IMG/VR virus record: IMGVR_UViG_3300009151_003928
Location: 1 to 64,000 of that record
Origin: a virus
Direction: 5' to 3' (one strand)
DNA: 64,000 nt
Shown piece by piece: positions 20,783 to 63,999 of the stretch (positions are counted from its first letter, which is position 1; every line of letters starts with the position of its first letter). The notes under the pieces are model-generated. The model was not told the DNA's origin, made no database searches, and was given only the letters and a program-made list of their open reading frames with translations. The translations under genes and the position numbers were made by a program.

Positions 20783-21559
20783 ATGTCTGATAATAAACTA
20801 GTAGAAGAAGCACCGTATCATCCCGGATACGAAGATGCCGCAATGGCAATGAGCGACAAAGGTTACGAAGAAGGTTACCTAGGTGATGCTATTCGCTTCA
20901 ACATGAAGCGTGATAAGAAACGTTTCTGGGCCGGTGACAACATTAGCGATTACTTACACGAAGGTGATAAGGAAATTTTAATCAACGAAGCCACAGAAGC
21001 TTTTGAAACAGTTTTAGATCGTCTGCTTATCGATCGAGAAAATGATCCTAACTCAAAAGGCACAGCTAAACGATTGGCTAAGATGTATTTTAACGAAATT
21101 ATGGGAGGTCGATATGATCCGGCACCTAGCGCAACAGCTTTTCCAAATGATTCAGCGGATAGATACGAAGGTATGTTGGTTGTTCGTAGCGAACTGCGTT
21201 CTATGTGTAGTCATCATCACCAGCCTGTGTCTGGTGTTGCTTACATCGGAATCATCGCCGCAAATAAACTTATTGGCTTGTCTAAATATACTAGGATCGC
21301 TCAGTGGTGTGCTCGTCGTGGCACACTTCAAGAAGAATTATGTAACGACATCGCAAGAGAAATAATGCGGGCTACTGAGTCAGAGAACGTGGGTGTGTAT
21401 ATACAGGCCACTCACGGATGCTGTGAGAATCGAGGCATTATGGCACACTCGAGTTTAACACAAACAACAGTATTAAAAGGTGCTTTTAACACAGACCCAG
21501 GAACTAAAAAAGAGTTCATGGACAATATCAAACTACAACAGGACTTTGCCCCAAGATGA
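20783..21559 (+). CDS. folE: GTP cyclohydrolase I
   Basis: SMCSHHHQP, IGLSKYTR, LQEE, ATHGCCENRG. Confidence 0.95.
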   Translation: MSDNKLVEEAPYHPGYEDAAMAMSDKGYEEGYLGDAIRFNMKRDKKRFWAGDNISDYLHEGDKEILINEATEAFETVLDRLLIDRENDPNSKGTAKRLAKMYFNEIMGGRYDPAPSATAFPNDSADRYEGMLVVRSELRSMCSHHHQPVSGVAYIGIIAANKLIGLSKYTRIAQWCARRGTLQEELCNDIAREIMRATESENVGVYIQATHGCCENRGIMAHSSLTQTTVLKGAFNTDPGTKKEFMDNIKLQQDFAPR

Positions 21560-25188: not shown

Positions 25189-25515
25189 ATGATACAACTT
25201 CCGCCCGGTTGTTGTGTGGCATATGAAATTCGTTTTACTGTGGGAGAACTTACAGATGAAATTGGTGAATGGTTTAATATGATTGGTGGGACTGCTACTA
25301 AGAAACAGTATTGGGATCATCGAGGTCGCGAACAATTTACAGTTCATGTACAATACGGTAAAGCAAAACCTAGTCACAGATTAGCAAATGGCGAAGTTCA
25401 TAATATTATAAGATTCGATGGCACAGATGCTAGTACTGCAAGCATGTTCTTGCTCAAGTTCATGGATCAAATCGTTTCACACAATTTAAAGGAAGCAGAA
25501 CATTATGTCTATTAG
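25189..25515 (+). CDS. Hypothetical protein
   Basis: Start reassigned to ATG 25189; preceded by a small membrane ORF at 25103-25192. Confidence 0.6.
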   Translation: MIQLPPGCCVAYEIRFTVGELTDEIGEWFNMIGGTATKKQYWDHRGREQFTVHVQYGKAKPSHRLANGEVHNIIRFDGTDASTASMFLLKFMDQIVSHNLKEAEHYVY

Positions 25516-26068
25516 AAAAATATACTACAAAGAATCAACCGTCAGGGGTTGGGTACACGAAATTGTTCGTGGCATGTCTGCAGACCAATGGCGACCAGAC
25601 TACATTGTGGGACTCACCCGCGGCGGCCTAGTTCCTGCTACCATGCTAAGTCATTATTTAGATGTGCGTATGGAAACTCTTAAAGTAAGTTTGCGTGATG
25701 ATAGCGAAATGGGCCCAGAAAGTAACTTGTGGATGGCCGAGGATGCGTTTGGATATGTAAGCACCGATGTTGTTCCTAGGCCGGCCAATTCCATTGCATC
25801 AGATCCTGCTACACGCAAGAACATTCTTATCGTTGATGATATTAACGATTCAGGTGCCACGCTCAACTGGATCAAGCAGGATTGGCAAAGCGGGTGTTTG
25901 CCCAACGATTCTGGATGGGACAACATCTGGGGTTATAACGTTCGTGTTGCTGTGTTAATTAATAACGAAGCAAGCGATTTTAAAGACGTAGACTATGTGG
26001 GGTTAACCATTAACAAAATGGAAGAACCTGTTTGGTGCGTATTTCCTTGGGAGGAGTGGTGGCATTAA
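25505..26068 (+). CDS. Type I phosphoribosyltransferase (purine PRT-like)
   Basis: IVGLTRGGLVPA and PRPP loop ILIVDDINDSGATL; C-terminal VFPWE. Confidence 0.9.
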   Translation: MSIRKIYYKESTVRGWVHEIVRGMSADQWRPDYIVGLTRGGLVPATMLSHYLDVRMETLKVSLRDDSEMGPESNLWMAEDAFGYVSTDVVPRPANSIASDPATRKNILIVDDINDSGATLNWIKQDWQSGCLPNDSGWDNIWGYNVRVAVLINNEASDFKDVDYVGLTINKMEEPVWCVFPWEEWWH

Positions 26069-26421: not shown

Positions 26422-26573
26422 TACTTGTTGGAACATGGGTTGTTGTAGGATTCTTTAGTGCCATCGGGTGGTACGGTGCTAACTATTATGTTATTACTCC
26501 ATATTTGCCTGAACCGGTGTTTAAAGAAAAACGAGTAGAAGAAACAAAACCAAAACAGGATGATGCTAAATAG
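26418..26573 (+). CDS. Small membrane protein (51 aa)
   Basis: MILVGTWVVVGFFSAIGWYG...; ATGA-coupled; not in the ORF track. Confidence 0.55.
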   Translation: MILVGTWVVVGFFSAIGWYGANYYVITPYLPEPVFKEKRVEETKPKQDDAK

Positions 26574-26588
26574 TATTATCCCACAAAC

Positions 26589-26652
26589 AGCGGCCTTCGG
26601 CGTTCATCCCGCTTTACAAACTCTGCCGCCTATGCTATAATTAACATAGGAG
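26589..26652 (+). ncRNA. Candidate preQ1-I-like riboswitch (H-type pseudoknot plus RBS hairpin) upstream of queD
   Basis: P1 AGCGG(26589-93)/CCGCT(26609-13); loop ends in CATC; A-rich tail TTACAAACT; P2 CGGCG(26598-602)/TGCCG(26624-28); hairpin CCTATG(26629-34)/CATAGG(26645-50) covers part of SD AGGAG. Confidence 0.55.
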
Positions 26653-26659
26653 ATCAAGC

Positions 26660-27160
26660 ATGAATCAAGCAATACAATACAAGTACACAAGTACAAAAGA
26701 ATACCATAACGCATTTCCCTGCGCTTATCGTCAATGGCGTGCCGATAGTCATTGTAACCTAAATCACGGGTATGCATTTAGTATGAAGTTCTATTTTGGA
26801 ACTGATACACTAGATGTGCGTAACTGGGCGGCCGATTACGGTGGGCTTAAAGAACTTAAGGCCATCTTGGAAAGTCAATTTGACCACACTACCTTGGTAG
26901 CACAAGATGATCCAGAACTTGAATTCTACAAAGAAATGGAACGTCGTAAGTTGGCCAAACTAACTATACTGCCAGCATTGGGTTGTGAAGCACTTGCTGA
27001 TCAACTGTACAAATTTATCAATGGTGTTTACATTCCAGATAACTGGGGACCGGGCGAAGCTAGTCGACTTTGGTGTTATCGTGTGGAAGTTCGTGAAACA
27101 CAAAGCAACATGGCTTTCCGTGAAGGCCATCGTGAATGGAATGAAGATCTATTTGCTTAA
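26660..27160 (+). CDS. queD: 6-carboxy-5,6,7,8-tetrahydropterin synthase
   Basis: HCNLNHGY, DYGGLKELK..L...FDHTTL, GCEALA, VEVRET. Confidence 0.85.
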   Translation: MNQAIQYKYTSTKEYHNAFPCAYRQWRADSHCNLNHGYAFSMKFYFGTDTLDVRNWAADYGGLKELKAILESQFDHTTLVAQDDPELEFYKEMERRKLAKLTILPALGCEALADQLYKFINGVYIPDNWGPGEASRLWCYRVEVRETQSNMAFREGHREWNEDLFA

Positions 27161-27317
27161 AGTATGGAGACTTTGGGCAAAAGCCCTAGGTGAAAAAACA
27201 GGTAATACGGATGCAGAAGCAGACCGTATTGCTTGCATTCGTAGTGTAATTGTGTTAATATACATTGTTACAAACTTTTTTATAATTGCGGGCGTATTAC
27301 GACATTGGAATGACTGA
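27141..27317 (+). CDS. Small membrane protein
   Basis: WRLWAKALGEK...ADRIA followed by a hydrophobic helix. Confidence 0.55.
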   Translation: MKIYLLKVWRLWAKALGEKTGNTDAEADRIACIRSVIVLIYIVTNFFIIAGVLRHWND

Positions 27318-27579
27318 TAAAATAAATGAAATTCTAGATATCCTCCAGGAGGAGTGTGCCGAAGTAATTGTTGCCATTAGCAAGATTCGCCGATTTGGAA
27401 TTGACAACACATATAAAGATGGCGGAACACAACGTGAGCACTTGGTTCAAGAGCTTGGTGATGTTACACTACTAATTGAATTGCTTCAAGCACACGGTGT
27501 TTACACCGAACAAGAACTAATCAACGCACAACGCCGAAAGGCAGTAAAATTAACTAAATGGTCAAAGATATATGAGTAA
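27310..27579 (+). CDS. MazG-like nucleotide pyrophosphohydrolase
   Basis: LQEECAEVIVAISK...LVQELGDV. Confidence 0.8.
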   Translation: MTDKINEILDILQEECAEVIVAISKIRRFGIDNTYKDGGTQREHLVQELGDVTLLIELLQAHGVYTEQELINAQRRKAVKLTKWSKIYE

Positions 27580-28453
27580 AATCAAAATAGCAGAATTATT
27601 TTATAGCATACAAGGCGAAGGCCGTTACATGGGTGTACCAAGTGTTTTCTTGCGTACATTTGGATGTAATTTTAAATGTGCTGGCTTTGGTATGCCACGT
27701 GGCGAATCTAGCCACGAGGCTACTGATATTGCGGCCACACACAAAATGATTGAGTCTTTTCAAAAGTATGAAGACTTGCCCTTAGTTAGTACAGGCTGTG
27801 ACAGCTATGCTAGTTGGCATCCAGACTTTAAAGACCTGAGTCCAATGCTTGAAAGCAACGCTATTGTTAATCGAATTATGGAAATACTTCCACATAAACG
27901 TTGGGAAGAAGAACATTTGGTTATTACAGGTGGTGAACCATTACTAGGGTGGCAACGTGCTTATGAAGATTTGTTAGAACATCCAAGTATGTGGCGGTTG
28001 CGTGAAATTACATTTGAAACAAACGGAACTCAACGATTGTCCGATGACTTTAAAAAGTATTTGTTTAAATGGTTAAAAGATGAACACAAAGAGTCCGTTG
28101 GTGCTACTAGTCCGCGAGTGATTACATTTAGTGTAAGTGCTAAACTACCATGTTCAGGCGAATCGTGGGATGAAGCAATTCTACCCAAGGTTGTTTGCGA
28201 ATACGAATGGTATGGTACAGCATATCTTAAATTTGTTATTGCTAACGAAGCAGATTTTAAAGATGCTGAGTGTGCCATTGCGGCTTATCGCAAAGAAGGA
28301 TTTAAAGGACATGTTTACTTAATGCCAGTAGGTGGTGTGGAAAGTGTGTACGCAATGAACAATAAGAATGTAGCATTGTTGGCTATGAAAAACGGACTAC
28401 GCTATAGCGATCGATTACAAGTTCCATTATTTAAAAATGAGTGGGGTACTTAA
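27572..28453 (+). CDS. queE: 7-carboxy-7-deazaguanine synthase (radical SAM)
   Basis: ELFYSIQGEG..G.PSVFLRTFGCNFKC...GCDS, VITGGEP, FETNGT, RYSDRLQ. Confidence 0.92.
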   Translation: MSKIKIAELFYSIQGEGRYMGVPSVFLRTFGCNFKCAGFGMPRGESSHEATDIAATHKMIESFQKYEDLPLVSTGCDSYASWHPDFKDLSPMLESNAIVNRIMEILPHKRWEEEHLVITGGEPLLGWQRAYEDLLEHPSMWRLREITFETNGTQRLSDDFKKYLFKWLKDEHKESVGATSPRVITFSVSAKLPCSGESWDEAILPKVVCEYEWYGTAYLKFVIANEADFKDAECAIAAYRKEGFKGHVYLMPVGGVESVYAMNNKNVALLAMKNGLRYSDRLQVPLFKNEWGT

Positions 28454-63149: not shown

Positions 63150-63999
63150 AGTATCGGCATTCATCCCAAAACTCTTTCATCTGCGGAAAGGTTTCTAGGA
63201 AATTAGTATTGCGACGTTTATCATGTTCATTGAAGAATCTGTAAAAGTCTGCACGTTGCAGTTTAACATAGTCTGGATCTAAATTGCAACCTTCTTTCAT
63301 CCAATCTATGTCTCGACGCATACGCTGTACTTCGTAATCTTTAAATCCATGAAACGGATCATCTGCTGTTTCTAAATTAAGTTCCATCCAGTCAGCTACA
63401 CGTTCTAAATGTTTAGAATATACTGGCGGCAGTATTTGTAAACTTTGCCATTTAGGCTGACGTAACAAGGGAGTATCAAACCAAACACGTTGATAGGTTG
63501 TGCTGTGTTGGCGACGCAAATCTAATATCCACTCGAGTTGTTGTTGTAGGCCTAGTACACTTAAATTATTCATTGTGATAATAAATGTAAGACTATTACG
63601 ATAAGGTATCTCAGTTAAGAAACGCTGTACATTGTGTGCTACTCTTTTGTAATTTAGTCCATTGCGAATATATTCTGCATGGTCTGGTTTCCCGCTATCT
63701 AAACTTACATACTGCATGAAGTGTTCAATTTGTGTATTACATAGATTCTTTACATAGCCCATGTATTTTTCAAATAATGAATCTTCTACACTAAAGTTAC
63801 TAGTAACATCTAAATGCAGTTCAGGATTAGGTAATGCCAACACGTAGTCAAATACTCGATATGTATTTTTATCCATAAGTGGCTCGCCACCAGTCATGCG
63901 GAAATGTTTTAGTTTTGGATAAAGGGTTGGAAACCATTCCCAAAATGCATCGACGTAAGGATTAGGTTGGGAATGTGGTATAGGCCTATTGCGCCCAGT
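63136..63999 (-). CDS. Radical SAM protein, 5'-truncated at the window edge (paralog of 61788)
   Basis: Frame is open to the edge: ...NPYVDAFWEWFPTLYPKLKHFRMTGGEPL; C-terminal DKRRNTNFLETFP. Confidence 0.88.
   Translation of the reverse strand, partial: TGRNRPIPHSQPNPYVDAFWEWFPTLYPKLKHFRMTGGEPLMDKNTYRVFDYVLALPNPELHLDVTSNFSVEDSLFEKYMGYVKNLCNTQIEHFMQYVSLDSGKPDHAEYIRNGLNYKRVAHNVQRFLTEIPYRNSLTFIITMNNLSVLGLQQQLEWILDLRRQHSTTYQRVWFDTPLLRQPKWQSLQILPPVYSKHLERVADWMELNLETADDPFHGFKDYEVQRMRRDIDWMKEGCNLDPDYVKLQRADFYRFFNEHDKRRNTNFLETFPQMKEFWDECRYYAQN

Follow-up and report, generated by a model that had tools for sequence, protein, structure and literature searches.

A covarying pseudoknot in the queD leader of uncultured lake phages, a candidate RNA switch resembling the preQ1-I fold

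The queD locus and its pathway genes

The 86-nt gap (26574-26659) upstream of the ATG of a queD-like gene holds a pseudoknot and a hairpin over the Shine-Dalgarno (SD) sequence, and the question that this locus raises is whether the leader acts as a switch on queD and, if so, what it would sense and in which direction it would act. The gene and its leader come from an uncultured lake phage represented by a 76-kb viral contig (IMG/VR record IMGVR_UViG_3300009151_003928) with an estimated completeness of 22%; the window, that is, the whole stretch of DNA analysed here, comprises the first 64,000 nt of this record. A first-pass annotation of the letters had proposed a preQ1-I-like riboswitch by which the phage would feedback-regulate its own deazaguanine supply. 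The genes around the element are as follows.

20996-21529, plus strand: GTP cyclohydrolase I gene (FolE)
25505-26068, plus strand: purine phosphoribosyltransferase-like gene (xanthine or hypoxanthine-guanine PRTase-like), upstream of queD
between the PRTase-like gene and queD, plus strand: two small ORFs
26660-27160, plus strand: queD-like gene (166 aa, PTPS fold), the first gene 3' of the element
27286-27579, plus strand: MazG-like pyrophosphohydrolase gene, downstream of queD
27572-28453, plus strand: QueE-like radical SAM gene

The product of the queD-like gene matched the Pfam PTPS family (1.6e-12) and the PHROG QueD-like family (5e-35), and it matched the NCBIfam QueD model below the family cut-off only. 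Neither QueC nor a TGT-family protein had a match in the source record, so that the absence of a visible QueC, remarked on in the first-pass annotation, held for the whole record. Among five large relatives (200-353 kb, three of them 95-100% complete), no TGT was matched by Pfam, and the QueC model gave weak partial matches only, in two of the five. As no QueC or TGT could be recognised, the pathway formed by the recognised phage enzymes would end at CDG. The large relatives (the records of L049, L053, L028, L008, and L067) appear to carry the FolE-QueD-QueE set without QueC or DpdA, and the PRTase-like and MazG-like genes of the window could serve a nucleotide-level route to a modified guanine. 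A megablast search with 3 kb of the locus against GenBank phages returned no match; the nearest QueD of a cultured phage, that of Acidovorax phage ACP17, is 55% identical, which is too distant for a comparison of leaders.

A covarying pseudoknot linked to QueD-type genes

The element has the topology of an H-type pseudoknot, with the following parts.

26589-26593, plus strand: 5' strand of P1, AGCGG, paired with 26609-26613
26594-26598, plus strand: L1, CCUUC, opening with a conserved N-C-U
26599-26602, plus strand: 5' strand of P2, GGCG, paired with CGCC at 26627-26630
26603-26608, plus strand: L2, UUCAUC, whose final base is the invariant C before the 3' strand of P1
26609-26613, plus strand: 3' strand of P1, CCGCU
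26614-26626, plus strand: L3, UUACAAAC followed by a conserved UCUGC
26627-26630, plus strand: 3' strand of P2, CGCC, the proposed switching sequence, whose final two C are at the same time the first bases of the SD hairpin

P1 thus encloses a 15-nt loop, CCTTCGGCGTTCATC (26594-26608), and the A-rich tail TTACAAACT begins at 26614. These parts of the first-pass description, together with its SD hairpin and its CTAAATA motif, were all present in the sequence, and its P2 was right in kind, as a covarying P2 exists, but was placed 3 nt away from the register supported by the relatives. The register CGGCG/TGCCG (26598-26602/26624-26628) was rejected, because it was paired in only 52.5% of cases with a covariation score of 0.19, versus 82.4% and 0.57 for the register 3 nt downstream.

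Relatives were collected in two ways. With the QueD protein as query, viral contigs gave at least 598 matching stretches; the leader was common to most of the best 80 of these (84-94% protein identity), and the element was present at 68 of the 80 loci, in one copy each. A scan of viral contigs with a 19-nt core pattern, independent of the gene, gave at least 120 stretches. Among the 80 pattern matches listed, 78 directly preceded a QueD-type gene, and the QueD proteins concerned were 35-90% identical to that of the window; one of the remaining two had a 243-aa ORF before queD, and the other was a chance match. The conserved element is thus linked exclusively to QueD-type genes.

A covariance model built from an alignment of 122 elements found a single copy in the window (66.3 bits), which is also the only one in the 76-kb record, and one copy per related locus. 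A second match in the window (63420-63446, minus strand, 9.4 bits) covered the tail only and was taken as chance. At one locus, an extra degenerate copy (L090:6-54, 34.9 bits; P1 ACCAG/CUGGU, UCUGC replaced by UUCGC) lies before a 309-aa SAM-methyltransferase-like ORF (L090:68-997), which lies just upstream of a normal copy and queD. In two other relatives, a further gene separates the element from queD: a 113-aa cupin gene in one (L137:6412-6750, minus strand) and, in the other, a gene for a 243-aa protein with no Pfam match (L150:4432-5163).

The exact pattern was also scanned for in one genome each of 185,579 prokaryote species, and of the five matches obtained, one was confirmed by the covariance model (62.7 bits); the other four lacked P1 and were rejected. 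The confirmed match lies on a 5.9-kb contig (CAIJZG010000025.1) of a 'Bacteroidetes' MAG, which is probably a mis-binned phage fragment and provides no evidence as to the host. Over 26594-26647, contig depth reached 660 and 353 in two lake DNA runs, compared with a baseline of 12-15 (approximately 25- to 55-fold), indicating that many phages co-occurring in one lake sample share only the leader core with the window at 88% identity or more.

Folding of single sequences gave no support to the structure: the 91-nt leader had an RNAfold z-score of +0.17 and the 42-nt core one of -0.72, with pieces of the window ranging from +0.17 to -0.84. As these values are no better than those of shuffled sequences, the support rests on comparative evidence. 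We aligned 122 distinct homologous elements with MAFFT without reference to structure. Across these 122 distinct leaders, P1 and P2 together were 91.7% paired, versus 36-50% for controls with slid partners, the P1 part of this figure being by construction, as the rows had been picked by a script requiring a paired P1. The covariation score of both helices was 0.37, versus 0.04-0.11 with slid partners, and it was reached by none of 500 shuffles, although shuffle controls overstate significance, as the relatives share descent.

An unbiased test of P1 was possible with the pattern-derived set, since the 19-nt core pattern held only the 3' strand of this helix. All five pairs were kept in 116 of 119 such instances, with compensating changes at three pairs and variants such as UGCGG/CCGCA, ACCGG/CCGGU, and AUCGG/CCGAU; AGAGG/CCUCU and AGUGG/CCACU were found elsewhere. 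In support of that, RNAalifold recovered P1 independently. P2 alone (26599-26602/26627-26630 register; 82.4% paired, score 0.57) showed compensating changes at four of five pairs, its variants including GGCG/CGCC, GGUG/CACC, GGCA/UGCC, GACA/UGUC, GGCU/AGCC, GGGC/GUCC, GACGC/GUGUC, GGCAU/AUGCC, and ACGAC/GUCGU. Its 22 G-U or U-G cells in the alignment are a strand-specific RNA signature, as such pairs would be A-C on the other strand. When loops and tails were exchanged between sequences, the duplex became weaker, its energy going from -5.6 to -4.6 +/- 0.12 kcal/mol. Clearly, both helices covary in homologous queD leaders, which was the comparison that the first-pass annotation had proposed as a check, and the comparison of sequences strongly supports a real structured RNA in the queD leader.

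The unpaired bases were conserved as well. L1, 4-9 nt in length, opened with UCU, CCU, or ACU in every one of 124 distinct elements, and the UCA and last C of L2 were invariant or near-invariant in the alignment of 122. The last two loop bases before the 3' strand of P1 were UC in 104, CC in 14, and AC in 6 of the 124 elements. L3 read W-U-A-Y-A-A-A-Y followed by UCUGC in 122 of 124, a figure that is partly by construction, because the patterns fixed parts of the core. Altogether, approximately 17 unpaired positions were invariant or nearly so (N-C-U after P1, U-C-A-Y-C before the 3' strand of P1, and W-U-A-Y-A-A-A-Y-U-C-U-G-C between P1 and P2), and their conservation is aptamer-like. A partner for UCUGC was sought by eye in the 5' strand of P1, L1, L2, and the SD, and nothing covarying was found there.

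Access to the ribosome-binding site and transcripts of the leader

Downstream of the pseudoknot, the 3' strand of P2 runs into a second helix.

26629-26650, plus strand: SD-sequestering hairpin CCUAUG/CAUAGG (26629-26634/26645-26650) with a 10-nt loop, covering the AGG of the SD
26648-26652, plus strand: SD sequence AGGAG, 7 nt before the ATG (26660)

The centroid fold of this hairpin has an energy of -6.9 kcal/mol. Three leader architectures, which we call classes A, B, and C, share the aptamer, and the window belongs to class A (81 distinct leaders). In class A, the hairpin CCUAUG/CAUAGG takes its first two bases from the 3' strand of P2 (the two final C), so that the overlap is 2 nt; its arms paired completely in 111 of 113 leaders, and one variant, CCUAUA/UAUAGG, was compensated. 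The other two classes have a helix across the start codon instead, UGUCGUC/GAUGGCA in class B and UGCCAUUG/CAAUGGCA in class C. Thus, the 3' strand of P2 is part of the 5' strand of a helix hiding the ribosome-binding site (RBS) in all three classes, and the two pairings are mutually exclusive. The RBS-hiding helices are nearly always fully paired and vary little, so that covariation within them is nearly absent. A transcription terminator was rejected, as none of the helices is followed by a U-tract and a scan found no terminator on the plus strand here.

In a partition-function model without the knot, the 3' strand of P2 was paired with a probability of 0.61 in the window and 0.69-0.80 in the classes, and blocking it cost 4-7 kcal/mol. 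The modelled accessibility of the RBS in the free fold and with the 3' strand of P2 blocked was as follows.

Class A: 0.42 in the free fold, 0.51 with the strand blocked
Class B: 0.16 in the free fold, 0.56 with the strand blocked
Class C: 0.42 in the free fold, 0.64 with the strand blocked
Window: 0.34 in the free fold, 0.48 with the strand blocked

As P2 competes with the RBS-hiding helix, folding of the knot should uncover the RBS. Because its 3' strand would double as the 5' strand of a helix that covers the SD in the window and the start codon in the two sister architectures, a ligand stabilising the knot would free the RBS and turn the translation of queD on; the downstream queE-like gene may be affected too. 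In the model, the case for this ON wiring appears convincing for classes B and C. It is modest for class A, in which only 2 nt are shared and blocking the strand adds little accessibility (0.34 to 0.48 for the window itself), which speaks against a switch in this class. The predicted direction is opposite to the feedback (OFF) logic of the first-pass annotation and, if the model is right, contradicts simple end-product repression.

Candidate promoter features lie in or near the leader.

26566-26572, plus strand: CTAAATA box, 16 nt before P1
26574-26579, plus strand: -10-like TATTAT after the CTAAATA box, the two together being a putative promoter and candidate start region for element-containing transcripts
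26613-26641, plus strand: predicted internal sigma-70 promoter, TTTACA (26613-26618) and TATAAT separated by 17 nt, with TG at 26633-26634

A TAARTA box was found 4-16 nt upstream of P1 in 65 of the 81 distinct class A leaders, despite differing upstream genes; it might be a promoter element specific to phages, similar to the T4 late -10 box. Leaders of classes B and C have a different -10 box, TAYAWT (often TGTATAAT), with its end 6-8 nt before P1, a position from which the RNA would start at the aptamer. The internal promoter has 11 of 12 matches and an extended -10 (TGcTATAAT, 26633-26641), and it overlies L3, P2, and the SD hairpin, its -10 being the loop of the hairpin. Loops of class A hairpins retain TAnnnT. 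Position 4 of L3 tracks the presence of this promoter: 79 of 81 class A leaders have C there, which makes up the ACA of the -35, and 34 of 42 leaders of classes B and C, which are without the internal promoter, have U.

Transcripts from the internal promoter would start near 26648, lack the aptamer, and may escape the switch, so that queD of the window may be expressed constitutively early on and, from longer transcripts, under regulation. A start downstream of P1 had been named in the first-pass annotation as an observation that would speak against a riboswitch. The predicted internal promoter would provide such a start, but the covariation implies that longer, element-containing transcripts must be under selection. 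In a lake metatranscriptome, four contigs span the element of relatives, and three of them run 38-173 nt upstream of P1; they may derive from DNA and are a weak hint of element-containing transcripts, and, being assembled contigs, they reveal neither start, strand, nor level, while stretches that they leave uncovered carry no information.

Interpretation of the element and comparison with known systems

Taken together, these results indicate that the queD leader is probably, although by no means certainly, an RNA switch that acts in cis and has an H-type pseudoknot at its core, most likely a riboswitch aptamer with a new consensus that resembles the preQ1-I fold. As expected of a riboswitch, a conserved and covarying leader aptamer was tied to one gene class, and its pairing excluded that of another helix, with an overlap of 2 nt in class A. 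It counts against this explanation that biosynthetic genes are not usually under ON switches.

The strongest competitor, which we nevertheless regard as unlikely, is a translational operator in which a phage or host protein binds the knot and no small molecule is involved. Pseudoknots in phage leaders are known to serve protein autoregulation, the conserved unpaired bases could be protein contacts, and the structure with its competing helix would fit any trans-acting factor that stabilises the knot. However, the QueD proteins next to the element differ by up to 60-65%, which speaks against QueD itself as the binding protein, no companion gene for a regulator was seen to be conserved (this was not a systematic search), and the compact size and loop conservation resemble those of small aptamers.

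It is less likely again that the element acts without any ligand, as a structure that, by constitutive or kinetic folding, keeps the RBS open, protects the 5' end, or works as a thermometer. The energies of the P2 duplex (approximately -7 kcal/mol) and of the hairpin (-6.9 to -8.2 kcal/mol) are similar, so that the order of folding or the temperature could decide between them, and the small effect on the RBS in class A would fit as well. Yet it would be hard to explain why an RBS-hiding helix is kept in three architectures just to be defeated constitutively, and the approximately 17 conserved unpaired bases exceed the needs of a simple stability element.

Similarly doubtful, and to a slightly greater degree, is the reading as a regular preQ1-I riboswitch, with preQ1 as its ligand and feedback repression of queD as the outcome. 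In its favour, the H-type topology with a short 5-bp P1, an invariant C before the 3' strand of P1 (preceded by U in 104 of 124 elements), and an A-rich tail agreed with the first-pass comparison; moreover, L3 ends in AAAC-U, matching the A-C-U of preQ1-I, P2 (here 4-7 bp) forms between the loop and the 3' tail, and the element lies in the leader of a gene of the queuosine/7-deazaguanine pathway, with translational control as the candidate mechanism. In preQ1-I, the specificity C precedes the 3' strand of P1, and the base before it is U in type I and A in types II and III (PMC11625349); it is in type I that UC stands at this place and the C pairs with the ligand (type I structure: PMC8752633).

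However, covariance models did not place the element in this family. With Rfam 15, no family matched in the whole window at gathering thresholds, none, including PreQ1 (RF00522), matched on 401 nt or on the 96-nt leader at E up to 10, and none matched the element in 14 relatives. A dedicated search with RF00522 found nothing at the leader in the record or in the five large relatives, its best scores elsewhere being 11 bits at unrelated places in the record and 13-17 bits away from the leader in the relatives, against a gathering score of 39 bits; the control from B. subtilis scored above the cut-off. The membership considered in the first-pass annotation was therefore not borne out, and the element is preQ1-I-like in topology without being a demonstrable member of RF00522. 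Its parts differ as well: L1 consists of N-C-U plus 1-6 nt rather than of UU (types I and III) or a short stretch of 2-3 nt, and L3 has 13 nt with the extra conserved UCUGC. In preQ1-I, the A-rich L3 runs straight into a 3' strand of P2 that holds the first bases of the SD, whereas here UCUGC comes between the A-rich part and P2, and the 3' strand of P2 contains no SD bases, the SD lying at least 18 nt downstream (18 nt from CGCC at 26627-26630 in the window); the platform is instead a separate helix competing with P2, whose wiring points to ON. Finally, with no QueC or TGT found, the phage enzymes would stop at CDG.

Conservation at the level of DNA only, as a promoter and operator with an incidental RNA structure, is highly improbable, for although the 11/12 extended -10 promoter overlaps L3, P2, and a hairpin whose loop keeps TAnnnT, and position 4 of L3 tracks the promoter, classes B and C keep P1, P2, and the loops without an internal promoter, and compensating changes together with G-U pairs are the mark of RNA from one strand.

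If the leader is a riboswitch aptamer, the invariant C next to P1 would fit a ligand with a guanine-like (2-amino-4-oxo) face: a 7-deazaguanine (CDG, preQ0, or preQ1), guanine, or a pterin, the pterin candidates being intermediates of the FolE-QueD-QueE route. Under the ON wiring, a precursor such as the substrate of QueD would be as plausible as a product. That the ligand could be other than preQ1, as the first-pass annotation had suggested, is plausible given that no QueC or TGT was found in the record, and that large, partly near-complete relatives had no TGT match and at most weak partial QueC hits. It is possible, and we propose it tentatively, that the element represents a virus-only riboswitch class, present in hundreds of uncultured large lake phages, which senses a precursor or intermediate of the FolE-QueD-QueE route and switches queD on. 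Dihydroneopterin triphosphate, CPH4, or CDG might then be the ligand, and the control would be feed-forward, in a pathway without QueC or a recognisable DpdA.

Should a metabolite bind, the element would define a new riboswitch consensus, so far confined to phages, of which, to our knowledge, few cases exist. The ligand would also show what FolE, QueD, and QueE make without a recognisable QueC or DNA transglycosylase, a question in phage 7-deazaguanine biology. As the aptamer is approximately 45 nt long and has more than 120 natural variants, the question is directly testable in vitro. We found no description of a riboswitch in a phage queD leader in the literature searched, which is not proof of absence.

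Among known systems, several small aptamers that fold as H-type pseudoknots, namely SAM-II, SAM-V, and guanidine-III, are like the element in size and topology. They differ from it in their consensus sequences and in their unrelated gene contexts, and cmscan gave no match to them at E up to 10. A phage precedent for a leader pseudoknot is the T4 gene 32 mRNA, in which an H-type pseudoknot near the 5' end serves the translational autoregulation of gp32. There, the protein binds cooperatively, and neither a competing RBS helix that shares a strand with the knot nor a link to a metabolic pathway is known.

The closest fold is that of preQ1-I, whose types I-III are reviewed in PMC11625349. In comparison, the core of the element is longer (42-48 nt versus approximately 34 nt), and it was found only in viral contigs. 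As the preQ1 switches described in that review repress, the element would, if the ON wiring is true, be an activating relative of a fold whose described members all do the opposite. With respect to the wiring, the nearest counterpart is the add adenine riboswitch (mentioned in PMC10018353), which is built on a three-way junction instead of a pseudoknot and has another gene class and another ligand, but which, as an ON-type translational switch, works in the way proposed here for the queD leader: the folded aptamer removes one strand of an RBS-sequestering helix.
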